In this document: piece by piece, positions 2,950 to 41,529 of the stretch
How positions within the stretch are numbered: the stretch's first letter is position 1
Layout of the letters: every line of letters starts with the position of its first letter
Virus record (IMG/VR): IMGVR_UViG_3300017989_000071
Location: 1 to 64,000 of that record
Reading direction: 5' to 3' (one strand)
Length of the DNA: 64,000 bases
Origin: a virus
Program-made: the position numbers and the translations under genes
Notes under the pieces: generated by a model
What the model was told of the DNA's origin: nothing
Seen by the model: only the letters and a program-made list of their open reading frames with translations
The model's database searches: none

Positions 2950-3696
2950 CTAGTTATCCCTAAAAACCCACTCGACGACCGCAACGGGATCGCCATGGAT
3001 CGCCCACTGAATTAAGGTGTCCGCCGACTCCTTCATCACAAGGCGCGGCGGGAAAATTTTATTGAAGTCGTTTATCATCCGGTCCAGATCGAGGTAGCCG
3101 GATGCAATCATCGCTTTGGCCTCGTTGCGTAGCATGGTGTAGTCCGCGATTTTCGCTTCGAGTAATTCGAGCTCCTGAGTACGGAGCCACGCCGTCGTCC
3201 CCTCCAGCGGAGCCTTTGCCCAGACCTTGTGGAAGCCCTTCAGAAACGTCACCGCCTGATCCAGCATCCGCAAAAGCCGCTTGGCATCCCGCATGATCTC
3301 GCGATCATGGGACTGCGCCCCCCGCTTATAAGCATTCGGGTGGAAAGTACGTATCTCGTCCTCCTCGATCCCGCTGAGCTGCCTCTTCGAGATCGCCCCG
3401 AACTCCTTGTCGATCATATTCTGCAACTCGAAGGTGTCGCCATTCCACGCCCCCTCCAAGTTATCGCGCCACTGTCGGATCGCTTCACCGATCCCTTGGT
3501 ACTGTTTGTTCCACTTCGCCGTCTGGTCATTGATCGAGAGCGCGTTCGCCGACGGCTTAACCCGGAAGCCCCCCGCGAGGATCGTACCGAGATAGTCCTC
3601 GTAGGCAATCAGCTCCTCGGTGAAGTCGTAGACGAAATCGGCCAGCTCATCGCCGACCTTGGTTGCCTGCTGGTAGAGTCCACGCACGCCCATCAT
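2950..3696 (-). CDS. Hypothetical helical protein, 248 aa
   Basis: Overlap-coupled to the upstream gene; helical composition. Confidence 0.7.
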   Translation of the reverse strand: MMGVRGLYQQATKVGDELADFVYDFTEELIAYEDYLGTILAGGFRVKPSANALSINDQTAKWNKQYQGIGEAIRQWRDNLEGAWNGDTFELQNMIDKEFGAISKRQLSGIEEDEIRTFHPNAYKRGAQSHDREIMRDAKRLLRMLDQAVTFLKGFHKVWAKAPLEGTTAWLRTQELELLEAKIADYTMLRNEAKAMIASGYLDLDRMINDFNKIFPPRLVMKESADTLIQWAIHGDPVAVVEWVFRDN

Positions 3697-4874
3697 GCCG
3701 CTCCAAACAAACGCGCTTGTCGGGGGATACCCGGCTCGCGCTTCCGGCGTCGAATCTCGGTCGGATCGACCACCTGCTTGAACAACTGCTTCGCGTCGCT
3801 CTTCGCTTTCGACGGAAGCTTGCCGTAGATCACCTCGCCCCGTTGCGGAGAGCTGAATGCAATCACGGCCAGAATCTTGTTGCGGCCCCTGAAGTCGATC
3901 TTGTCCAGAACCCGGATCGAGAGATCGCCGTCCGGACTCTTCCCGAGAGACAGCCCCTTGAGCAGGCGGGTCATGCGGTCGATCCCCTCCCGCGAGTCCC
4001 GTTCCGCTTCAGCGGCGGACGGAATATCCAAACGGGTCTCCGGAATCAGCTCGTCCTTGATGAACTGCTCCAACTCCGAGTCGTCTTCGCTCACATCCCA
4101 ACCCATGTTCTCGACACGATCCCAATAGTGATAGGCATAAATCCCGCCGTAGAAATAGTCTGAAGCACGCTGCCGGGTGTGGCTAACCTGCCGCAAAACC
4201 TCGATCTCGAAGTGCGACTCGAAAAGCCGCCACAACAGATTATACAACTTCGGGTGCGCGTCCGACGGCGGCTCCACCTCGATCTCTCGGGCATACTGAT
4301 CGAGCCGGTCGAACAAATCCTGAGCAAACTCCGCACCCCCACCGGGGTCTTCGTTGTCGAGGTAGCTGGCGACCCAGTAACCGAGAGCCTCCCATTCGTT
4401 GAGCCGTCTCCCGTGATCGTCCTTCCACCTGTAGTAATCCGCCGTGGTTCGGATCGCATAGTCCGCCGCCTTGACCACCAGCGGGGACACCACGTCTTCG
4501 TCGAGGAAGGCGGATCGCGGCTGAATCTGCGCCACGATAATCACCTGCCGATCATCGCCGTACCGAACCTTCGACCGGGAACCGGCGTTACCGGCCTTCT
4601 CCATCTGGGGCGTGAAGTACACCCCTCCGAACGTGGTCAGGTTTTGGCGGGAAACCGTTCCCCGCACACCCTCATCTTCCTCATCGGTCCAGATCGGTTC
4701 GGCATCGGGATCGAGACCGCCCGCACGTTTGATGTGCTCCCACGCCGTCTCACTCGTACCGTGGTAGTAAATCCTCGGCTTGGCCGACTTCTGCCGCTTC
4801 TCGTACAGACGGGCCACTACCTGATCCGGGGCACAGCCGTTCAACACCTCTTGGATCAAGTCGTTTGCGTTCAT
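3693..4874 (-). CDS. ADP-ribosyltransferase-like protein with N-terminal leader (T4 Alt-like role inferred)
   Basis: Start moved to MNANDLIQEVLNG (GAGGA RBS). YYHGTS...GGLDP, GGVYFT and VIIVAQI...LDED fit the H-Y-acidic ART fold. Confidence 0.65.
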   Translation of the reverse strand: MNANDLIQEVLNGCAPDQVVARLYEKRQKSAKPRIYYHGTSETAWEHIKRAGGLDPDAEPIWTDEEDEGVRGTVSRQNLTTFGGVYFTPQMEKAGNAGSRSKVRYGDDRQVIIVAQIQPRSAFLDEDVVSPLVVKAADYAIRTTADYYRWKDDHGRRLNEWEALGYWVASYLDNEDPGGGAEFAQDLFDRLDQYAREIEVEPPSDAHPKLYNLLWRLFESHFEIEVLRQVSHTRQRASDYFYGGIYAYHYWDRVENMGWDVSEDDSELEQFIKDELIPETRLDIPSAAEAERDSREGIDRMTRLLKGLSLGKSPDGDLSIRVLDKIDFRGRNKILAVIAFSSPQRGEVIYGKLPSKAKSDAKQLFKQVVDPTEIRRRKREPGIPRQARLFGAA

Positions 4875-4893
4875 CGTTCCTCGCAGTAGAAAA

Positions 4894-4947
4894 TCGGTGC
4901 GTCCAACAGGAAGAGGAGGTTGTCGTCGTCTCTGCCGGACGCACCGA
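4894..4947 (-). terminator. Intergenic hairpin with short U-tract
   Basis: 11-bp inverted repeat tcggtgcgtcc/ggacgcaccga followed by TTTT on the minus strand. Confidence 0.55.
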
Positions 4948-4956
4948 TGGATCAAC

Positions 4957-5409
4957 TTACAGATTGGGGGCTTGGTCAATGACCATGTTCAGCCGGTCGC
5001 CGAAGGCGTCCAGCGCATCGGCCTCCGGATCGCCGATGGCCCGCAGATGCGCGGCCTGCTTCTCGATCCAGTTATTGATCCCAAGCAGCACCTCGACGTA
5101 ATCGTTCTTGGCGAGAAGCATGTCCACCGCCTTTGTGATCCGACTCGGCACCTTCGAGATCAGCGTCATCTGTCCCTCGGTCTTCGAGCGGCTTTCCTTT
5201 TTGAACTTGTCCACGTTGCGGGCAAACTTGGCGATGAGCTTCTTGCCTTCCGGCGAGTCGGGGTCTTTCCCCATGTTTTTGACCATCTTCTTCGCCGACG
5301 CGACGTTATCGGGTTCGGTCTCCTCGGACTCGTGCGCCCGCTCGATCACACTCGCCGGAGCGTCCCCCGCCAGCACTTTATCGATCATCTGATCCGCTGT
5401 TCGCAGCAT
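4957..5409 (-). CDS. Putative head-internal protein with shared leader motif
   Basis: AAGGAG RBS before MLRTADQMIDKVLAGDAPASVIE. Confidence 0.7.
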   Translation of the reverse strand: MLRTADQMIDKVLAGDAPASVIERAHESEETEPDNVASAKKMVKNMGKDPDSPEGKKLIAKFARNVDKFKKESRSKTEGQMTLISKVPSRITKAVDMLLAKNDYVEVLLGINNWIEKQAAHLRAIGDPEADALDAFGDRLNMVIDQAPNL

Positions 5410-5433
5410 AGGATCACTCCTTTCGTTGAGAGG

Positions 5434-5463
5434 CCGGGGGGCCAAGGTGAGTCAGCCCCCCGG
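5434..5463. other. GC-rich intergenic hairpin
   Basis: ccggggggc / gccccccgg 9-bp stem directly after the stop at 5471. Confidence 0.5.
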
Positions 5464-6996: not shown

Positions 6997-7475
6997 GGAT
7001 GATCTCCTTGCCGTTGTACGGCCTGCTCGATTCTCCGGACGGATCGGCCAATCTCCTTCACGTCCTCTTGAACCTCGCCCACCGATTCCTTGATCGTTTC
7101 CATTTCCGTCCTGATCCGCGTCTGCTCGATGCGCAGGCCGTCTACGTGATTGACCAACTTATCCACGTTTTCCTTCTGCGTGTCGATCTTAACCTTCAAG
7201 GTCGTCGTCTCGGTTCCCTGAGCATGACGGTCCTCTTCGTTCTCCCGGCGAAGCCGCTCGGCCTTCGCGGCGGCACTCTCGACCTGCTCGTCGAGCTTAT
7301 CCACCGCCTTCTCCACCGACCCGACACGGCTGTTCAACCCCGCATCGCTGCGGGAGTACGCCATCGCACCACCAATAAGAGCGAGGAGAACCGTGAAAAT
7401 AAACGGGAGCCATCTCGCGAATCCTTCAGTCACTTTCCACTTCCCGTTACCGTTGGCATTTCCATTCGCCATCAC
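6993..7475 (-). CDS. Membrane-anchored coiled-coil protein (holin/spanin-like topology, unproven)
   Basis: One TM helix WLPFIFTVLLALIGGAMAY followed by a heptad coiled coil. Confidence 0.6.
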   Translation of the reverse strand: MMANGNANGNGKWKVTEGFARWLPFIFTVLLALIGGAMAYSRSDAGLNSRVGSVEKAVDKLDEQVESAAAKAERLRRENEEDRHAQGTETTTLKVKIDTQKENVDKLVNHVDGLRIEQTRIRTEMETIKESVGEVQEDVKEIGRSVRRIEQAVQRQGDHP

Positions 7476-7879
7476 GATTCTCCAGACAGGTCAGCGTATT
7501 CGACTTGGATTGCCGGGAGAACCGTCTGGCGGATCAGCTTGAAGATTTCCGCTGCGTCGCCTTCGACTACTCTCTTATAGCCCGTGGTGATACATTCCAC
7601 CCGGACCTTCGAGGGCAGGCCGTCCACCGACTCTACCCGGACCTTGTAATGCCGACGCTGGCCGTTCACGCACTCCGTAATGAAGGTTGAATGGCCGCGC
7701 TTCGGTTGAAACCGTTCGTTGCGGAACATCCGCACCCCGTGCGACTGCATGAACCCGATCAACAGCCCGGAGAAGCCCCCGTCCTCGTAGTCGCCAACGA
7801 GGCAGGCTTCAACCATGTCGGCGGGGTGCGCCCCGTCCATGACCTTCTGAATCAGGCTGTCAGCGGAGTAGTCGCTCAT
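7472..7879 (-). CDS. Putative head-internal protein with shared leader motif
   Basis: MSDYSADSLIQKVMDGAHPADMVEA. Confidence 0.65.
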   Translation of the reverse strand: MSDYSADSLIQKVMDGAHPADMVEACLVGDYEDGGFSGLLIGFMQSHGVRMFRNERFQPKRGHSTFITECVNGQRRHYKVRVESVDGLPSKVRVECITTGYKRVVEGDAAEIFKLIRQTVLPAIQVEYADLSGES

Positions 7880-7967
7880 CGTTGTTTCACGTTTCCGGGG
7901 TTTCGAGAATTAAAGGTATTTTAATTGCACGATGCGTAATTAAAGATTCCGCGCTTTGCTTTAATAC

Positions 7968-8029
7968 CGGAGCTCCGATACTTACGCCCGAAGCTCCGAT
8001 ACTTCGGGTTCGGTAGTATCGGAGCTCCG
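7968..8029. repeat. Triplicated AGCTCCGATACT element forming nested inverted repeats
   Basis: cggagctccgatact (7968-7982) is the exact reverse complement of 8015-8029; the middle copy lies in the cccgaag/cttcggg hairpin (7987-8008). Confidence 0.8.
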
Positions 8030-8057
8030 AACATTGAGGGTCACACATTGAACACAA

Positions 8058-8083
8058 CGGGGTTTGTCGATCACGAAACCCCG
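8058..8083 (-). terminator. Probable terminator hairpin after the polyprotein gene
   Basis: cggggttt/aaaccccg stem about 12 nt past the stop, weak U-rich tail. Confidence 0.5.
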
Positions 8084-8094
8084 GTTCGTGTCAA

Positions 8095-11000
8095 TCAAAC
8101 TCCCGCTTTGCCCGCCAGTAAACCGGTCTTCGGCTTATCGAGCGATCCACCCGCTGCTGAAGCCGGAATGTCCTTCTCGCCCCGCTGGATGCGGTTCATC
8201 AGACCGCCGTGGCCGCCGCCCCCATGCTGCGGGGTCGGGCAGTTATTGGCGATCTTGAACTCCTTCAGGGTCAGGCCCAGCTTCCGGGTGGACTCCTTGG
8301 GTTCGGTGACCGTCTCGAAATCAAAGCCGTCAACAGCCGGTCCGCCCGAAGCGTCCACCACACTCCACTGCCCCCCGTTCGGGCCAATGATCCAGAGCTG
8401 ACCGTGCTCGAACGCCCAATCATATCCCTTGCCCTTCGATCCCGAGATGCCCTGCTGCTTCAAAAACGCTTTGACGGCATCGTATCCATACGAGGGGTCC
8501 GCGCTCTTCAGCTCCGCTTCTCCGAGCCGCTTCATGGCGGTCCCGGTGACCCTGACCAACTGATCGAGGGGCAGGGCCAGATACTTCTTCTGATCGGATG
8601 CGGAGAGGTTGCCGTAAACCGTCAGCACGTTCGCGGCCACCTTCTTGTCGAGGCCGTCGTGAACCACCTCCCCGGCGGCGATCTTCTTCAGCGTCCCCAC
8701 ATCGAAGCCTTGCGCTTCCTCTTCCACCGACTCCAGAGCCTTCATGTCAATCATCGAGAGGATGTCGTAAACCTCGCTGGGGTTTATCGTCCAAGCACCG
8801 TAGCGATTGGACGCCTCATCTCTGATCCAGTCTTCGACATCACCCCGCCGCCGCACACCTGTTTTCCCGAAGTACAATCTCGCGGCTGAGGCAATCTTCT
8901 CTTTTTGTCGCTGCGTTAGACGCTTCGGCTCCCGAGAGGTACGAAATTCCTCAACCGCCTCGTACTGATAGGTGCCGGGGTTGGCGAGCGCGGCGACGGC
9001 GATCTTCTGCTGTTCGGGGGTCAGGTCTTCCCAATTCATCGCCTTGGCATTGCTCGGGATCGTGTTGCTCTCGTCGCCAACCACGACGGGAACCTGAGAC
9101 GTACCCTTTTTGATCGTGGTCGGGATCGCCACGGCGTTGTACGCCCCGTGCCGGTTCTTCGTCTTCCCGGTAACGGTGATCTCACCACCCTTCCGATAGA
9201 CCGCCATGACCGAAGCGGGTTTGGATGCTTCCTCGACCCGCTCGCCCTTCATCTTGCGAATCCGTTTGACCAGATCGACCAGACCGGCCCACCGCTTCTT
9301 ACCCCACGGGGTACTGACCATCTTCTCGTGATCGTCGGCGGCGGTCGGCCAGAGCGCACCAGCCACGGTCTCGGGGTCGCCCCCACCACGCAGCATCGAC
9401 ATGATGCCTTCGCGACTCTTCTTCCCGTAGCTGGTATCGACCTTCATCTTCCCCGACATCAGATCGTCCACGAATGCGGCGACGCTGGCCTCGGTCACCT
9501 CGGGCAACTCATCCCAATCGACATCGACCTCTTCGTCGTCATCGTCTTCTTCGTCGTCCTGCCCCATCATCACCGACTGGATGTCCATCCCGGCGATCAT
9601 GTGGGGGTACATCTTAATCGTCCCATGGCCGACCGGCATTGGAGCCGCCGCGAATCCCGTGGACATCACCGTCTCGGAAATGCCGCTCGCGAAATTCGTC
9701 ACGAACTGCATACCATCCCACGAGATAATCATCGGGTCGATCCCAGCGGACGCATCGAAGTCCATCATGTGAACCAAGCCCTTGTCCGCATCGACCTTGA
9801 TCTGCTCCATCCATGTCCGGGGGTCTTTCAGCCCCGCACCTTCGAGAGCCTTGCGGACCACCTCGTCGGTCGTCGGCTGCAACTCATCGGCGAACTGATC
9901 GCCCTTGACCTGCTTGAAACTGATCGTCGGCCCCATCGTCAGCGGCCACTGCATCGTCTCATCGAGCAGGTAGGCCGCCGCCGGGTACGCACTACCCTCA
10001 CGGGCTTCCTCGATGGCGAGATCGATGCGATCCAACTGCATCACCTCGCCGAACATCTGCCGGAGCATCGGCTTGGCGTTGTTCAGCGCACGCTTGCGGC
10101 CCATCGAGAGGTTGGACCCGGCACGGTTGATGTAGAAATTCAAGCGGCTCATCGCCTGCTTCAGACTTTCGCTTTGGTTGTGAAGAACCGTGGCGACCTC
10201 CTTGGCCGACCGGGTAAACAGACCCTTGGGCGGGGTCCACTTCGTCTTCACCTGTGCCGACCACCTCGCGCCCTGTTCCTCGATCTCCTGAACACGGCCC
10301 AACCGCCACGTCACCCGCGCATCCCACTCTTCGATCTCGGTATGCTCCTTGACACCGGCCAACTTGCGGAGCTGCGCGTCGCTCATATCGGCCAGCGGCA
10401 TAATCGTTGTGCCACCCTTGGGAGTCAGAACCAGCACCGCCGGTTTCCCCCCGTGCTTGCCCTTGTACTCGCCCGGCATCTTGGACCAAATCTTGTCCAT
10501 CCACGCCTTACGCTTCGTGTCCCGCTCGGTCTCCTCACCTATCGCCTCACCGTAAGTGTCCTGCGCCCACTTACTCATAATCGTTTTGTCATGCAAAATC
10601 GCCCTCTGGAAGTCGGACGGTACATCCTTCCACTCAATCTCCGTATCGTTTTGGAGGTTGCGGAGCCGAATCGGTCCAAGATCATACGAGATGATCCGAC
10701 CCGCGTGTTCGAGTACAAACTCCACCGCATGAACCGTATCCATCGGGGCGAGCCGATGAAACTTTGGATTCAAAGTAACGGTGTAGACATCGCGGGTAGC
10801 ACCCTCTTCGTTCTTGAAAATCTTCCCAATCGTCTTCGGCATCGCCGCCTCGAAGATCGGCTCACCCTTCATCGCCCGCTCGATCATCGCATCGGCTTCG
10901 TCGAGGGAGGACGCGGGCGCATCCCCACTCTCAGACGGGTGGTACCCGTAATCGCCGGGATTGCGGGTCATGTCTTTAATCACAGCACGGGACGCGCCGA

Positions 11001-11952
11001 TCAGCTCGTTGGCCGGGTCTCGCCGCAACTCCTCTTCGGCATCGTCCATCGTGAAGTCCTGCGGAAACACGCCGCTCATCATCGAGTCCTTCCACACCCG
11101 GTCGAGGTTGAAGACCAGCTCCACGTTCGACCCCCGGATCGTGTAATCCGTCAGGTGTCGGCTGTTCTGGTAAAGGCGTTCGATCACCGTCTCGGGATCG
11201 TACCGCTGGTAAACCGACCCGATCAGATCGGACAGCAACTTCTTGATGGGGACCGAAACCTTGACCGTGGACTTCGCCTCGGTCACATCGTCCTCATCCT
11301 CCACGACCTCGGTCACACCCTTGAACGAGGTGTAGGCACTGGCGTAGTTATTCTTCGCCGTACCCGCGCCGGACGGGCTGCTGAAGGTAAGGATCGCGGA
11401 CTTCCCCTTCACCGACCCCTTCTTGAAGCCGGTCGCATCCTTGCCGTCGGTTTTGATGTCGTCGAGAAATTCCTTGGCGTCGCCCGGACTCCCGAAATTG
11501 AAGGTCACCGTCGTTGCCTCGGTCAAATCCGATTCTCCATCCTCGACGGACTCGAAGGTCCATCCGTGTTTGTTCTCGGCCCACTGGACCATATCTCCCC
11601 ACGAGGTGAGGAGGAACTTGTTCTCGGTCGGGGAAAACACCACGGTCGTATCGTAGGTGTCCCCGAAATTGACGTACATTGCGACAACCCCCTGCCCCGC
11701 ATTCGCGCCCCAATAGCGTCCATCGACACCGCCGGGGTAGTCGTCAAGCGAAACGTCCGGGCTGGTGATCGCCTCGACGCCGTAACCGCCGATGAGCTCG
11801 TTGATCTCATCCAGCACCTTCTCGATCTGCCGACCGCCGCCACGCTTCTGCATCAGCTGAGCGACCTTCTTCGCCGTCGGGTCGTCGATCTTGAAGAGCT
11901 TCATCAACTCGGTCGGCTTGACTCGGGCTTCTTCGATTTTCGGTTTCGACAT
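8095..11952 (-). CDS. 1285-aa modular polyprotein, putative protease-processed head-internal protein (contains a DUF3175-like module)
   Basis: About 12 unrelated 60-170 aa segments separated by [ILV]-[TEGFK]-E-[AEFWQ] linkers; QAMSRLNFYINRAG at about 10045-10272 resembles DUF3175. Confidence 0.7.
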   Translation of the reverse strand: MSKPKIEEARVKPTELMKLFKIDDPTAKKVAQLMQKRGGGRQIEKVLDEINELIGGYGVEAITSPDVSLDDYPGGVDGRYWGANAGQGVVAMYVNFGDTYDTTVVFSPTENKFLLTSWGDMVQWAENKHGWTFESVEDGESDLTEATTVTFNFGSPGDAKEFLDDIKTDGKDATGFKKGSVKGKSAILTFSSPSGAGTAKNNYASAYTSFKGVTEVVEDEDDVTEAKSTVKVSVPIKKLLSDLIGSVYQRYDPETVIERLYQNSRHLTDYTIRGSNVELVFNLDRVWKDSMMSGVFPQDFTMDDAEEELRRDPANELIGASRAVIKDMTRNPGDYGYHPSESGDAPASSLDEADAMIERAMKGEPIFEAAMPKTIGKIFKNEEGATRDVYTVTLNPKFHRLAPMDTVHAVEFVLEHAGRIISYDLGPIRLRNLQNDTEIEWKDVPSDFQRAILHDKTIMSKWAQDTYGEAIGEETERDTKRKAWMDKIWSKMPGEYKGKHGGKPAVLVLTPKGGTTIMPLADMSDAQLRKLAGVKEHTEIEEWDARVTWRLGRVQEIEEQGARWSAQVKTKWTPPKGLFTRSAKEVATVLHNQSESLKQAMSRLNFYINRAGSNLSMGRKRALNNAKPMLRQMFGEVMQLDRIDLAIEEAREGSAYPAAAYLLDETMQWPLTMGPTISFKQVKGDQFADELQPTTDEVVRKALEGAGLKDPRTWMEQIKVDADKGLVHMMDFDASAGIDPMIISWDGMQFVTNFASGISETVMSTGFAAAPMPVGHGTIKMYPHMIAGMDIQSVMMGQDDEEDDDDEEVDVDWDELPEVTEASVAAFVDDLMSGKMKVDTSYGKKSREGIMSMLRGGGDPETVAGALWPTAADDHEKMVSTPWGKKRWAGLVDLVKRIRKMKGERVEEASKPASVMAVYRKGGEITVTGKTKNRHGAYNAVAIPTTIKKGTSQVPVVVGDESNTIPSNAKAMNWEDLTPEQQKIAVAALANPGTYQYEAVEEFRTSREPKRLTQRQKEKIASAARLYFGKTGVRRRGDVEDWIRDEASNRYGAWTINPSEVYDILSMIDMKALESVEEEAQGFDVGTLKKIAAGEVVHDGLDKKVAANVLTVYGNLSASDQKKYLALPLDQLVRVTGTAMKRLGEAELKSADPSYGYDAVKAFLKQQGISGSKGKGYDWAFEHGQLWIIGPNGGQWSVVDASGGPAVDGFDFETVTEPKESTRKLGLTLKEFKIANNCPTPQHGGGGHGGLMNRIQRGEKDIPASAAGGSLDKPKTGLLAGKAGV

Positions 11953-12350: not shown

Positions 12351-12704
12351 TCAATAATTCTCGCGCTTGGCGAATCCGGACTCGATCATGTGCTCCCCGT
12401 AGTCCTTGCCGGTCGGCAGGATCACGTCGCACGTCCACCGCCCGTACTTGCCGGGCTTGTAGGTCCGAACCTTCATCTTGTTTCCGAGTAGCAGGTTGAC
12501 CGCATGGGCCTTCGCCGCTTCCCCGTGAGTGCGCTCCGCTTCGTTGACCGGACGCCACGTCTCCGGGGCATCGTAGGCATTCAGACGGAAGCGCATGTGA
12601 ACCGTCACATAGAAACCGAGATCGACATCGGCGTCGAAGGTATCGGCGTCAACCACATTCGTAATCTTCGCCCAATACTCATAGCCTGCGCTTCCCGGCA
12701 TCAT
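12351..12704 (-). CDS. Thermonuclease/SNase-like nuclease
   Basis: NVVDADT, RFRLNAYDAPE, GKYGR and MIESGFA motifs. Confidence 0.85.
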   Translation of the reverse strand: MMPGSAGYEYWAKITNVVDADTFDADVDLGFYVTVHMRFRLNAYDAPETWRPVNEAERTHGEAAKAHAVNLLLGNKMKVRTYKPGKYGRWTCDVILPTGKDYGEHMIESGFAKRENY

Positions 12705-12710
12705 CCGCTC

Positions 12711-13628
12711 CTATATCGTGTCGTCGTACTTGCTCTTCTTCGTCTTCCCCGCCTCGGTCACCTCCTGCTCGATCAATTCGTCGGCTCGGCTCATCTCACT
12801 CTCCGGTAGGGGGTTGTTCTGGATCGCGGCCATAAACCGATTCGCCGCTTCCGGGGGCAACTTCTTCCCCTTGGGCGAAACGAAGTGCATGAAATTCTCG
12901 GCGAAATCTTCCTCGTGGTCGCTCTTGGCATAGGACGAGACAAACTGATTCGACTTCTTCCACTCTTCCCTATACCACACCCGCGCTTCACCGGAGAGGT
13001 GGCGACCCCACACATAGTGCGCGAGCTCGTGAAACAGCGAATCCTTCTCGGCTTCGCGAATCCGAATCACCCCGCCCCTGTGCTCCAAGAAGTTGTCCGC
13101 GTAGATCGCAAATTGTCCGAACGTCCTATCGAAAGCCGCAACCGCCGACGGGGGCGCACCGAGATGTATGGGGGGCTTCCTCCACACATGAACGCGCCAC
13201 AACTGATCGGAGAGCCATCCCAACCCCGCACGCTTCAAGTAATTCCGAAGCTGCGAGATGTGGTAGTTAATGACATCGGTTTCTTGCGGATTCTCGGAAT
13301 CCTTATTCCCCCAATGCACCTCATTCCGCTCGCTCACCTCGGGTAGATCGTTCGTTATGAGATGGGGGTGATCGTCGATCCAAATATCCACCTCGTATCC
13401 CGCATCGGCAGCGGCCTTGTCATTGCGCCGCTGGCCGCAGAAGACGATGGGGCACAGGCCGTCGATCTCATCCTTGACGGGTTGGGCCTCGAAGCCCGGA
13501 TCGCCGGGATCGCCGCGCCGGGTTACCACCACCGCATCGTGGCCGTGTGACCGAACCATCCCCACAAACCACTTGAAGAGCTCGGGGGCTTCGGTCCACG
13601 TCCCATCGTAGTCGATTCCGAAAAGCAT
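12711..13628 (-). CDS. HAD-like phosphatase fused to a zincin (HExxH) metallopeptidase-like domain
   Basis: FGIDYDGT...DIWIDD (HAD) then FHELAH...SSYAKSDHEEDFAENF (lethal-factor-like zincin pattern). Confidence 0.75.
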   Translation of the reverse strand: MLFGIDYDGTWTEAPELFKWFVGMVRSHGHDAVVVTRRGDPGDPGFEAQPVKDEIDGLCPIVFCGQRRNDKAAADAGYEVDIWIDDHPHLITNDLPEVSERNEVHWGNKDSENPQETDVINYHISQLRNYLKRAGLGWLSDQLWRVHVWRKPPIHLGAPPSAVAAFDRTFGQFAIYADNFLEHRGGVIRIREAEKDSLFHELAHYVWGRHLSGEARVWYREEWKKSNQFVSSYAKSDHEEDFAENFMHFVSPKGKKLPPEAANRFMAAIQNNPLPESEMSRADELIEQEVTEAGKTKKSKYDDTI

Positions 13629-13631
13629 GAA

Positions 13632-14051
13632 TCAGTAAACGGGCTTGAAGTCGCTCTCGCCCATCAACTTCTCGACCGACTGATCGAGCTGTTCGATAAG
13701 GGCCATAATCTTCGGCTTCAGCTCGCGGGCCATCGCCTGCATCTGCATCTCGACCTCGGCCTTCTGCTCCGGGGTCAGCGGCTCGTTGCTCGAATAGGGG
13801 AGCTGCTTTTCGTAGCAGCGCATCGGACCGCCGCAGGACATCGGGCCGTATCCGGACGCTCCCTCCATCTTGCAACGGATCGACCACTTCCGCCCCGCGC
13901 TGTACTGGCACAGGACCATCTTGAGCTCGATGTCCACGGGAGCCGCATCGGACCTCACGGACACGCCGGAGCGCAGATCGCTCGTGGCTTCATTCAGGGG
14001 ATTCCGCGTCCCCTTCAACTCCCGTTCGATCAACTTGTCCGCTCTGTTCAT
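13632..14051 (-). CDS. Putative head-internal protein with shared leader motif
   Basis: MNRADKLIERELKGTRNPLNEA; the leader ends in an L-x-E-A motif. Confidence 0.65.
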   Translation of the reverse strand: MNRADKLIERELKGTRNPLNEATSDLRSGVSVRSDAAPVDIELKMVLCQYSAGRKWSIRCKMEGASGYGPMSCGGPMRCYEKQLPYSSNEPLTPEQKAEVEMQMQAMARELKPKIMALIEQLDQSVEKLMGESDFKPVY

Positions 14052-14163
14052 GCTCGGCTCCATTCTGCTCCCCGTCGCAATGACAAGTCGCATAATACAT
14101 TGTCGTCAGGACCATGAAGATCAGGCACCCGATTGTCGTCTTCGTCTGCCACTTCATCGGCAC
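13990..14163 (-). CDS. Possible small membrane/exported peptide, 57 aa
   Basis: AAGGAA RBS, GTG start, hydrophobic IGCLIFMVLTTMYY; overlaps the next gene by 62 nt. Confidence 0.35.
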   Translation of the reverse strand: MPMKWQTKTTIGCLIFMVLTTMYYATCHCDGEQNGAEHEQSGQVDRTGVEGDAESPE

Positions 14164-25102: not shown

Positions 25103-25573
25103 CTATCGAAGCCCGTCGAGATTCAGCTGCATGTTCCCGATCAGATAAGCCATCCGCGTATCGCGCAAGCTCCGAGCATACGCGATCACCGCCTTCCGGG
25201 TCTCCGACATCACCCGTGACCGCAGCAAAAGCTCGACGTTACACGGATCGATCCACGGCGTCGCGAAGACGTGCTCCCCCTTCGCCAGATAGCTCTCCTC
25301 CGAGGGGCATCCGACATTGCGGTCCCCCCACCACCGCAGCGTCACGATCCCATCGTCGTCGTACTCCACCCGAGCTGTGATCCGGCACAGCTCCCAAAAC
25401 TCGGCATCCCGCAGATCGTCGCCTCGCATCTTCGCCGCCGTGTCCCACGTCCGGGGTCTCATATTCCCACCGTTGATGCTGTCCATCGTCGTGTCGAGGA
25501 AAACCCGCATCCGCCCCCACCACTCGCTCACCGGCTCAGCGTAAACCCGCCGAATCATCCGCTCACCCTTCAT
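25103..25573 (-). CDS. Hypothetical protein (C-terminus weakly neck-protein-like)
   Basis: Overlap-coupled ORF; ends YARSLRDTRMAYLIGNMQLNLDGLR. Confidence 0.6.
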   Translation of the reverse strand: MKGERMIRRVYAEPVSEWWGRMRVFLDTTMDSINGGNMRPRTWDTAAKMRGDDLRDAEFWELCRITARVEYDDDGIVTLRWWGDRNVGCPSEESYLAKGEHVFATPWIDPCNVELLLRSRVMSETRKAVIAYARSLRDTRMAYLIGNMQLNLDGLR

Positions 25574-25971
25574 CCCTCTTCATCCTCCTTGACAGGAACC
25601 GCCTCAATCGAGAACGATTCGAGCTCCAGATCGGTCACCACCCCGCCCTCGACCGTACCGCTCCCAATGGTATAGCCCCGCGCCCCGAGACGACCCTCCT
25701 GTATCGCGGCGAAGAGCTCCTTCAATTCCCTGCTCTTCGGCGTGTCGGGCAGCAACTCCAGATCGACCTCGATCACCCCCTCCTTGAAATCGGCGCGGGT
25801 AACGAGATGCGTCACGTCCTGAAGATTCCCCAGCATCTCACGATTCCTGATCCGCTCCTGAAACTTCGGGTCGTTGACGGCCTTCTCCAGCACCTCGGGG
25901 GGATACACCCTCCCATTGCGCCTTCCCATCTCATCCGCCGGAATCGTCACCGCGATCTTGCGCTTATCCAC
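25570..25971 (-). CDS. Degenerate T4 gp21-like prohead protease lacking catalytic His and Ser
   Basis: RNGRVYPPEVLEKAVND matches gp21 RNKRLYPKRILEKAVKD; GELNHP becomes GNLQD; VSSRG becomes ARGYT; GTG start at 25971. Confidence 0.75.
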   Translation of the reverse strand: MDKRKIAVTIPADEMGRRNGRVYPPEVLEKAVNDPKFQERIRNREMLGNLQDVTHLVTRADFKEGVIEVDLELLPDTPKSRELKELFAAIQEGRLGARGYTIGSGTVEGGVVTDLELESFSIEAVPVKEDEEG

Positions 25972-26179
25972 CTTCCCGCTCCTGCGCATGAAAATGCTTG
26001 TACTCCTCCCAATCCCGAAAGAGCTGGTTGAACGCCCCCTCGCTGATCTCGTGCCGTTGCCCGTAGATGTGGACATGGAACGCCCGCTCCTCCATCTCCA
26101 AAAACTGAACGTCCTCGATGGCGATATAGAAGCACCCCGGCGTGCGCGGCTTATCGACTCGCAATACACCTATGGCCAT
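25964..26179 (-). CDS. Hypothetical protein, 71 aa
   Basis: GGAGG RBS; overlap-coupled. Confidence 0.6.
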   Translation of the reverse strand: MAIGVLRVDKPRTPGCFYIAIEDVQFLEMEERAFHVHIYGQRHEISEGAFNQLFRDWEEYKHFHAQEREGG

Positions 26180-40671: not shown

Positions 40672-40904
40672 CTACCTTCGACGAGCTTCTGATGCTCGTA
40701 CTTGTCCTTGACGTTTTCGTTGAGGAACTTCCCGCTGGACGGGGAGAGAGCCAGCCGCATCGCTACCGATTCCACAACCCCGTGGTAAACGTATCGACCG
40801 CCGTTGTTGAACACCACCATCAGATCGCCCAGCGGATTGTTCGCTGCCGACTCCGTAGGCTCCCAGCCCACCGAGTCGATATTGGAACTCTGCACTTTAA
40901 TCAT
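40668..40904 (-). CDS. KTSC domain protein
   Basis: VQSSNIDSVGW, VVFNNGGRYVY and SSGKFLN. Confidence 0.9.
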   Translation of the reverse strand: MIKVQSSNIDSVGWEPTESAANNPLGDLMVVFNNGGRYVYHGVVESVAMRLALSPSSGKFLNENVKDKYEHQKLVEGS

Positions 40905-41529
40905 GTCTCGCTCCTCGTCTGTTGATTAACGCTTTGCGCACCTCGACGCACGGATGATCCTCGCACTCGCCCCAACGCACGTCGGGGCTATGGTACTCCC
41001 GGTGATATGACTCAGCCATCCACCGCTGAACCTCGTCCGGGCGGATGCCGACATAGGCCGAATCCTGCGGGGGAAACCCCGCAACCTGCGGACGGATGAA
41101 ACCACGCTCGAAGAGCTCTGCGAACAGGGGACCGAGATCGGTCTTCCCGGCATCTCCACTGAGCATCCCCCGTTCGCCGAGAAGTGCATAGAACTGACGG
41201 AGCAGATCGAAACCGAGATCGACCGCATCGGGAGAGATGAATCCGGGTTTGTCGTCGATCCAGATGTCCACGGGATACCCCGCCGCAATCGCCGCCTTCT
41301 CTTTATACATCGCCCCGGCGAAAACAGTCGGAATCCGGCTCCCAACCAGCGACCGCACCTCGGCTGCGGGATACGGAGTATCGTCCCGGTCCTCCCGGCC
41401 TGTGACCAGCACCGCCGAATGTCCGCGCTCCAGAATCGCGTCAAGGATTCGGTGAAACAGCCCCGGACAGGCGGCAAAGGTGCCGTCGAAGTCGATCCCG
41501 AATCGAACCTTTTCCGTCGCTTCGCTCAA
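40897..41529 (-). CDS. HAD-like phosphatase, paralogue of the 12711-13628 N-terminal domain
   Basis: FGIDFDGT, VLVTGR and VDIWIDD. Confidence 0.8.
   Translation of the reverse strand: MSEATEKVRFGIDFDGTFAACPGLFHRILDAILERGHSAVLVTGREDRDDTPYPAAEVRSLVGSRIPTVFAGAMYKEKAAIAAGYPVDIWIDDKPGFISPDAVDLGFDLLRQFYALLGERGMLSGDAGKTDLGPLFAELFERGFIRPQVAGFPPQDSAYVGIRPDEVQRWMAESYHREYHSPDVRWGECEDHPCVEVRKALINRRGARHD

Follow-up and report, generated by a model that had tools for sequence, protein, structure and literature searches.

A multi-module protein with hydrophobic-x-Glu joints as a candidate cargo polyprotein of an uncultured myovirus

The 64,000-nucleotide window analysed here represents positions 1 to 64,000 of IMG/VR virus record IMGVR_UViG_3300017989_000071, the linear genome record (117,644 bp, completeness estimate 91%) of an uncultured myovirus. 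It carries P0001, a single uninterrupted open reading frame (ORF) at 8095-11952 on the minus strand—the main coding strand—which begins with ATG and encodes 1285 amino acids (aa; 141 kDa, isoelectric point (pI) 5.3). The product contains about a dozen small modules of 54-172 aa, joined by short, often acidic linkers that end in a hydrophobic residue, any residue and glutamate. We favour, with moderate confidence, the reading that P0001 is a late, head-targeted polyprotein, whose unrelated modules would be cut apart at these hydrophobic-x-Glu joints by a gp21-type protease and injected as cargo. An original prediction, made from the letters of the sequence, had described a 1285-aa polyprotein of about 12 unrelated domains separated by 14 prohead-protease-type motifs: the ORF and all 14 joints are present as listed, self-BLAST of P0001 found the modules without similarity to one another, and the coding direction is here corrected to the minus strand.

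As we picture the mechanism, the 141-kDa precursor would be recruited to the prohead core by an 11-residue leader that is N-terminal in at least five other late proteins; the gp21-type serine protease of the clade (a Peptidase_S77-scaffold fusion) would then cut after Glu at the joints, freeing the modules and trimming off leader and linkers. Once freed, the modules would be retained alongside the DNA inside the capsid and pass into the host upon infection, as T4 internal proteins and Alt do, while over evolutionary time modules would be gained, lost or replaced by recombination at linkers, as module-plus-linker cassettes. Recruitment, cleavage, head retention, injection and any effector role are steps that we infer.

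The chain divides into about 13 segments, which are given below with the terminal peptides and the leader copy in window coordinates, from the N-terminus onwards; "|" in the joint notation marks the predicted cut position, after Glu, GC3 is the GC content at third codon positions and pLDDT is the predicted local distance difference test score from AlphaFold.

11929..11952, minus strand: N-terminal octapeptide MSKPKIEE|A, from the sequence
11518..11928, minus strand: residues 9-145; core 30-127 with stand-alone homologues, acidic linker at the end (...GESDLTE|A)
11278..11517, minus strand: residues 146-225, orphan; triple-site linker at the end (VTE|VVE|DEDDVTE|A)
10897..11277, minus strand: residues 226-352, orphan; ends in SSLDE|A
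10849..10896, minus strand: residues 353-368, internal leader copy ADAMIERAMKG-EPIFE|A, with a candidate cut site on each side
10534..10848, minus strand: residues 369-473, orphan; GC3 0.64
10327..10533, minus strand: residues 474-542, orphan, basic (pI 9.0); ends in VKE|HTEIEE|W
10006..10326, minus strand: residues 543-649, DUF3175 module (PF11373) and flanks, pI ~10.7; ends in DLAIEE|A
9490..10005, minus strand: residues 650-821, orphan, very acidic (net charge -25); D/E run, then LPE|VTE|A
9229..9489, minus strand: residues 822-908, predicted helical, with a 12-residue repeat; ends in GERVEE|A
8947..9228, minus strand: residues 909-1002, orphan; ends in YEAVEE|F; pLDDT <50 at 906-922 and 993-1003
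8719..8946, minus strand: residues 1003-1078, confident helical unit, GC3 0.64; pLDDT 84-94 over 1010-1069, joint SVEE|EA in the dip at 1075-1080
8518..8718, minus strand: residues 1079-1145, helical unit, pLDDT 72-86; ends in KRLGE|A; P0012 aligns across 1099-1237
8302..8517, minus strand: residues 1146-1217, FEHGQLW module, pLDDT 92-98; phage-borne stand-alone family of 71-95 aa
8098..8301, minus strand: residues 1218-1285, C-terminal tail, Gly-rich, basic and predicted disordered; contains LKE|F

The joints, each with its start residue, are IEE|A (6), LTE|A (143), VTE|A (223), IFE|A (366), IGE|E (471), IEE|W (540), IEE|Q (557), IEE|A (647), VTE|A (819), VEE|A (906), VEE|F (1000), VEE|EA (1076), LGE|A (1143) and LKE|F (1229). 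By analogy with the 6-residue ITE propeptide of T4 Alt, which it resembles, the octapeptide MSKPKIEE is a candidate short propeptide. Three particular features that the original prediction had picked out were also recovered: a DUF3175-like module, which matches PF11373 at residues 591-635, scoring 44.8 bits where the cut-off is 27 and covering profile positions 41-85 of 86; an internal 12-residue repeat, VDTSYGKKSREG / VSTPWGKKRWAG, at residues 838-849 and 879-890; and a shared leader at one junction, residues 353-368. Segments 369-473 and 1003-1078 both have GC3 0.64, whereas the remaining long segments of P0001 range from 0.72 to 0.88 and most lie at about 0.8; the difference hints that both were acquired recently.

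Within P0001 the motif [LIV]xEA occurs nine times against 1.59 expected (none of 5000 shuffles reached nine), which is 4.4 times its frequency in the remaining proteome; measured against shuffles, too, [LIV][TE]EA stands at six against 0.22 and plain [LIV]xE at 27 against 17.8 (P = 0.01). Placement was assessed against independent units, defined by stand-alone homologues or by pLDDT and covering 35% of the chain: these hold three of the 28 [LIVM]xE motifs where 9.8 would be expected—that is, the motif is depleted inside folded units—and not a single [LIV]xEA site. Another six motifs occur within linkers next to a proposed site; several linkers hold two or three stacked sites. Wherever boundaries can be checked, whether by homologues, structure or counting, joints coincide with them. 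T4 gp21 cuts after Glu in L/I-x-E, as at the Glu-Ala bond in gp22 and at ITE-6 and LTE-619 in Alt (PMC9026906; PMC5694885); an Asp in the P1 position blocks its processing (PMC9026906). Motifs of this kind are enriched in P0001, where the sites of predicted cleavage lie in low-confidence linkers.

Structure prediction for the C-terminal half agrees with this layout. The AlphaFold model of residues 650-1285 contains confident globular islands at 1010-1069, 1080-1145 and 1150-1219, while pLDDT drops below 50 at 906-922, 993-1003 and 1075-1080, which correspond to the joints VEE|A, VEE|F and VEE|EA. Since the predicted template modelling score (pTM) is 0.36 and the confident islands are split by low-confidence linkers, residues 650-1285 do not form one continuous fold. 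Foldseek searches of this model against PDB and BFVD gave long alignments of low template modelling score only, which are meaningless.

Detectable homologues exist for three of the ~13 segments, namely residues 30-127, the DUF3175 part and residues 1146-1217. Residues 30-127 match P0002 (101 aa, pairwise E 8e-16) and P0003 (169 aa, 2e-16); no Pfam family was assigned to the stand-alone homologues. The DUF3175 part matches a 96-aa stand-alone coding sequence of Burkholderia phage BCSR5 and also Thermus phage phiLo (tblastn); the family is uncharacterised, and a literature search returned no paper mentioning DUF3175. An exhaustive HMMER search of residues 640-1285 across 1.84 billion representatives recovered 69 homologues besides the query, all on residues ~1144-1222 and most of them stand-alone proteins of 71-95 aa, with no match outside 1144-1222. 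Five of the nine aligned stand-alone homologues place their start Met within one residue of A1146, which would be the new N-terminus after the LGE|A cut. This FEHGQLW family was found at 28 IMG/VR loci, against one in 185,579 prokaryote genomes, and is also embedded in larger multi-module ORFs, two of them giant (1682 and 2002 aa). The giant ORFs, L020:3190-8238 (1682 aa) and L024:2182-8190 (2002 aa), lie on viral contigs of 455 kb and 155 kb and embed an FEHGQWW module among many Cys-rich, zinc-ribbon-like modules with recurrent linkers of the [AS]-S-K-[KT]-[AS] type; they may represent another polyprotein design with a different joint.

Full-length homologues of P0001 were absent from 5.8 billion proteins and, by peptide patterns, from IMG/VR, and cultured phages yielded none apart from the DUF3175 part. 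Searches with portions of the chain likewise gave no match for residues 9-145 and 1146-1231 in cultured phages (tblastn) or for residues 146-545 among shorter proteins, and neither the PDB sequence search nor ESM Atlas returned a match. Pfam at E up to 1 recognised DUF3175 alone and PHROGs nothing at E ≤0.001; no structural domain was recognised by Pfam or PHROGs, and no peptidase domain by Pfam or the PDB sequence search.

The leader element consists of 11 residues, AD-x-[LM]-I-x3-[LM]-x-G, with [LIVM]-x-E following 4-6 residues on. The copy in P0001 is internal (residues 353-368) and reads LDE|ADAMIERAMKGEPIFE|A. Six copies emerged from a six-frame scan, four of them at N-termini and each then followed by [LIVM]xE 4-6 residues on; in the called ORF set the core motif occurs five times against 0.32 expected, a figure that is indicative only, because the pattern was defined after the sequences had been seen. 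The same leader is carried by the relatives' own proteins. It has no sequence similarity to the T4 targeting sequence, and the N-terminus of P0001 itself is MSKPKIEE|A. Other ORFs of this genome that carry the leader or a variant of it are as follows.

13632..14093, minus strand: late ORF with N-terminal leader MNR-ADKLIERELKG-TRNPLNE|A
7472..7879, minus strand: ORF with N-terminal leader MSDYS-ADSLIQKVMDG-AHPADMVE|A
4957..5445, minus strand: ORF with N-terminal leader MLRT-ADQMIDKVLAG-DAPASVIE|R
115195-115416 of the genome: ORF with N-terminal leader
3693..4979, minus strand: 428-aa ORF with variant leader MN-ANDLIQEVLNG-CAPDQVV... (MNANDLIQEVLNG) from an internal Met
2950..3696, minus strand: 248-aa ORF with the leader at its C-terminus, ADTLIQWAIHG-DPVAVVE|W

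At YYHGTS, the ORF at 3693-4979 also weakly resembles the Tpt1/KptA family (PF01885, E 0.031).

A protease of the appropriate family is encoded by three relatives (L037/L040, L039 and L038) whose capsid protein is 57-60% identical. Their Peptidase_S77 domain (PF03420, 54.6 bits; for instance at L039:8245-8790 and L037:4152-4700) has intact His and Ser motifs. It forms a fusion with a C-terminal half that resembles a scaffold protein, and the fusion gene stands immediately upstream of the gene for the capsid protein. In the present genome, the scaffold-like ORF beside the capsid gene (genome 116997-117644; L003:12997-13644) has a frame open to the contig end, which lies 27 bases upstream of its apparent start. 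The part of the relatives' fusion protein to which it aligns is the C-terminal half (31% over 174 aa, E 1.8e-9), placing the break of the contig within the protease-scaffold gene. Judged from this truncated ORF only, the gene for the active protease most likely continues a short way past the end of the contig. No exact match to that end turned up in metagenomes, and the contig ends do not join to each other. Another ORF, at 25570-26169 on the minus strand, was considered as the active protease and ruled out: the His segment (EADHPEDGKT in the relatives) is deleted and GARGY replaces GISSRG, so that it is an inactive paralogue. The first ~60 residues of that ORF resemble out-of-frame Arg/Ser-rich sequence, and its real start is probably the Met at residue 61.

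Comparison with the relatives also reveals exchange of modules. Two of them (G001/L040 and L039) encode other multi-module proteins, of 530-1072 aa, directly upstream of the protease gene.

L040:151-1848: relatives' polyprotein, 565 aa
L040:1727-4945: relatives' polyprotein, 1072 aa
L039:3423-5015: relatives' polyprotein, 530 aa
L039:4975-7320: relatives' polyprotein, 781 aa

Their module linker differs from that of P0001, being arginine-rich, ER(R/K)RxRRR-[VI]-x-E|, with the same type of ending. Between two such linkers one polyprotein carries a Kyano_Gp96 module (Pfam), known as a small stand-alone protein of T4-like cyanophages. One pair of orthologues, of 406 and 320 aa, are 55% identical and differ by an 89-aa insertion placed exactly after the linker in the 406-aa protein, which is encoded among the head-neck genes of its relative. 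The insertion comprises an FEHGQLW module, from the family of P0001 1146-1217, plus a second copy of the linker; P0001 has nothing but this module in common with the proteins of these relatives. In the orthologues of 565 and 530 aa, the first and last modules are conserved around unrelated middles. At the C-terminal end of L040:1727-4945 there are two tandem copies of a ~130-aa module, each after a 30-residue basic linker, ERKRRAARK(R/H)RMEALKAKRRKQVRE|QDE, and hence module and linker can duplicate together within a chain.

The genome itself is of T4 type in its head genes, with a major capsid protein (phrog_138, 3.6e-52) and portal (PF07230, 9.6e-45) of that type, a tail sheath (6.5e-81) and a separate tape measure gene. 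P0001 is no assembly or fusion artefact, an origin ruled out because an identical protein is recorded on six contigs of a public protein collection, the longest of 129 kb. A role as tape-measure or fibre protein was likewise rejected, P0001 having neither repeats nor fibre domains and the tape-measure gene being separate. The neighbours of P0001 are tail-fibre-like, spanin-like and leader-bearing ORFs, GC-rich stem-loops lie on either side of the gene, and a promoter/terminator scan gave nothing informative. In the minus reading, the stretch that follows P0001 (window 7930-8095) contains a hairpin that resembles a terminator; after it come a repeat with CGGAGCT in three copies (TATCGGAGCT) and a run rich in AT. 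The stretch lies just ahead of the leader-bearing ORF at 7472-7879 and could be regulatory. Upstream of P0001, an endonuclease-family ORF (window 12351-12704, minus strand; phrog_452, 9.3e-21) stands between it and P0073, and may be a homing endonuclease insertion. The features of P0073 are as follows.

12711..13628, minus strand: P0073, 305 aa, HAD-like N-terminal domain and HExxH zincin-like C-terminal domain, ending ...EVTE|AGKTKKSKYDDTI

The HAD-like part of P0073 matches phrog_4256 and phrog_4919; its second domain contains HELAH...EEDFAENF and falls below the Peptidase_Mx cut-off (E 0.0026, 17.7 against 27), and EVTE|A lies 13 residues before the stop. The N-terminus of another ORF, at 40897-41529, is similar to that of P0073.

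Several observations weigh against a head-targeted, cleaved polyprotein. Six [LIVM]xE motifs fall within putative modules. The stand-alone 96-aa DUF3175 homologue of BCSR5 projects onto ~residues 542-637 and spans IEE|Q (557-559), so that this joint probably belongs to the N-terminal portion of that module. Most of the stand-alone FEHGQLW homologues conserve VTE|P (1215-1217), which is thus a feature of the family and not only a joint. Val is common at P3 of the joints, and T4 gp21 is described as preferring Leu or Ile. The leader count carries the restriction already given. AlphaFold of residues 1-649 without an alignment was unusable (pLDDT 35), so boundaries in the N-terminal half rest on motifs and one homologous module. 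An active protease of its own is absent from this contig, whose sole S77-like ORF is the one at 25570-26169, with 17.3 bits for Peptidase_S77. The head genes come no closer than 8 kb to P0001, which sits beside spanin-like and tail-fibre-like genes, unlike the relatives' polyproteins immediately upstream of the protease. Throughout, the basis is sequence and predicted structure.

Taken over its parts, the original interpretation is partly supported. Its account of the joints as boundaries holds where it could be checked and probably fails at IEE|Q; the stand-alone homologues that it proposed to look for were found for three modules, the other segments being orphans. The joints do fit the published L/I-x-E specificity of gp21 (PMC9026906; PMC5694885), and the prohead-protease type it had named finds its counterpart in the intact Peptidase_S77 of the three relatives. 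It had offered one continuous fold, or motifs no commoner at boundaries than elsewhere, as grounds for abandoning the idea: the model of residues 650-1285 and the placement of motifs between independently defined units both went the other way. Modules had been expected to be swappable between related phages, as they indeed are in the 89-aa cassette of FEHG module plus linker and in the orthologues with unrelated middles. For an uncultured phage, the comparative evidence is unusually coherent; cleavage, presence in the virion, injection and an anti-defence role are biochemical predictions made from sequence.

Four other explanations compete with this one. P0001 might be an uncleaved multi-domain protein—a polyvalent-type virion protein or a structural accessory—with joints that are merely a linker style left by repeated fusion. 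We regard this as unlikely: for more than 75% of polyvalent proteins the published descriptions include no demonstrated processing (PMC5512222), cleavage of P0001 is itself a prediction and VTE|P is intrinsic to the stand-alone family, yet the same P3-P1 pattern ends the relatives' unrelated R-rich linker and follows every leader copy, the sites fit the specificity published for the clade's own family of protease, and they are stacked within linkers. Marginally less credible is a sacrificial substrate of core or scaffold type, cut like T4 gp22, gp67 and gp68, with pieces that are expelled or serve only assembly or head size. Cleavage at the same motif breaks T4 core proteins into many pieces (PMC9026906), a large share of the linkers are acidic, as in scaffold proteins, and 10 of the ~13 segments lack homologues; three modules, however, are compact domains with stand-alone counterparts in bacteria and unrelated phages, the genome has a coiled-coil scaffold ORF of its own, and the fast turnover of modules between relatives suits conflict-driven cargo better than assembly parts.

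We give little credence to the idea that the zincin-like domain of P0073, encoded two genes upstream, processes P0001 and the prohead serine protease does not. HELAH followed by EEDFAENF is a zincin-type arrangement with weak Peptidase_Mx matches, and zincin-like peptidases are the commonest domain of polyvalent proteins, which they are predicted to process (PMC5512222), but the Pfam scores are under the cut-off (17.7 against 27) and it is for the gp21 family, rather than for zincins, that cleavage after Glu with a hydrophobic P3 is documented as the signature. Near its own C-terminus P0073 moreover has VTE|A, resembling a substrate feature, and in the 27-40 kb of the relatives that were examined the polyproteins adjoin the S77 protease and no P0073 homologue was detected. 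Equally improbable is that P0001 fuses small accessory genes into a protein of the cytoplasm, kept out of the virion and either left intact or cut by another protease: the hairpins that bound P0001 could make it a transcription unit of its own, the modules with homologues, DUF3175 among them, are of a kind typical for small proteins of the cytoplasm and no structural domain is recognised, yet P0001 has the leader common to late-block proteins, and the relatives' analogous polyproteins sit between head genes or directly upstream of protease, scaffold and capsid. None of these four accounts explains as well as the head-targeted polyprotein why one P3-P1 pattern should end two unrelated linker types and every leader copy, when the protease of the clade belongs to a family with just this specificity on record.

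A broader reading, which we put forward tentatively and hold to be possible rather than probable, is that the prohead-protease site serves as a universal cassette joint in this T4-core myovirus clade, such that any small protein plus linker could be spliced in, loaded once, cut and injected. If so, this would amount to a naturally modular and rapidly reshuffled system for delivering multiple effectors, and a source of many early-acting, possibly anti-defence proteins. Should cleavage and delivery of P0001 be borne out, many unrelated cargos would be bundled in one gene and separated by the head-maturation protease, joining two ideas that have been treated apart, the capsid-targeted internal proteins of T4 and the polyvalent proteins, and the cassette gain and loss seen between relatives would supply a concrete mechanism for rapid turnover of cargo. 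Most proteins of uncultured phages have no assigned function, and leader plus hydrophobic-x-Glu joints would provide a simple sequence rule for recognising injected proteins among them. The T4 targeting sequence has already been used to load foreign proteins into heads; a short leader and joint of the present kind might do the same.

Among known systems, the closest parallel is offered by the T4 internal proteins IPI-III and Alt. T4 internal proteins bear a 10-residue capsid-targeting sequence that ends in the gp21 motif (PMC9026906), and in the present phage the leader, a candidate targeting peptide, likewise stands ahead of a predicted hydrophobic-x-Glu site. The cargo is small, unrelated and fast-evolving, packaged in the head and injected (again predicted in P0001; PMC9026906; PMC5694885), and the two phages share capsid and portal families, the T4 protease family being that of the three relatives. 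In T4, however, the cargos are separate genes, each with an N-terminal targeting sequence and one or two cuts, whereas P0001 fuses about a dozen candidate cargos with a predicted cut site per joint, its leader is internal and unrelated in sequence, and Val and Met are frequent at P3. T4 gp22-like core proteins also differ, being highly charged coiled coils without globular domains, while P0001 has confident globular units.

Polyvalent proteins (Iyer et al., 2017; PMC5512222) similarly combine 2-15 functionally disparate domains in one polypeptide, are encoded near late or virion genes, are predicted to be delivered with the DNA and released by proteolysis, and show extensive module shuffling. 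P0001 resembles them in having at least two unrelated domains and in lying near late or virion genes. It departs from them in lacking, by Pfam, the catalogued domains (MuF, zincin MPTase, ART, methylase-helicase and LPDs) and an embedded peptidase; its modules are small and non-enzymatic or orphan, and their predicted release would occur in trans, through the prohead protease at regular short joints. DUF3175, elsewhere a stand-alone protein of ~96 aa, is here one internal module of a 1285-aa chain.

In phiKZ, 201phi2-1 and SPN3US many proteins of the head interior are cleaved after the Glu of a three-residue motif by a diverged protease of the gp21 family, frequently with redundancy among the sites, and the host receives the ejected cargo (PMC9026906; PMC5694885); redundant sites are stacked in propeptides of phiKZ and SPN3US (PMC9026906), as the predicted sites are in the linkers of P0001. 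These jumbo phages are unrelated to the present 118-kb clade, their motif is S/A-x-E or A-x-E, and their cuts remove propeptides of individual proteins and do not divide chains of modules. No gene of this type, a phage polyprotein that a prohead protease cuts, was found described in the literature searched, many subscription papers lying outside its coverage. P0001 would then be a variant on the theme of packaged, injected proteins that T4 internal proteins and polyvalent proteins represent, its novelty being that the cargos are fused and accompanied by an internal leader.

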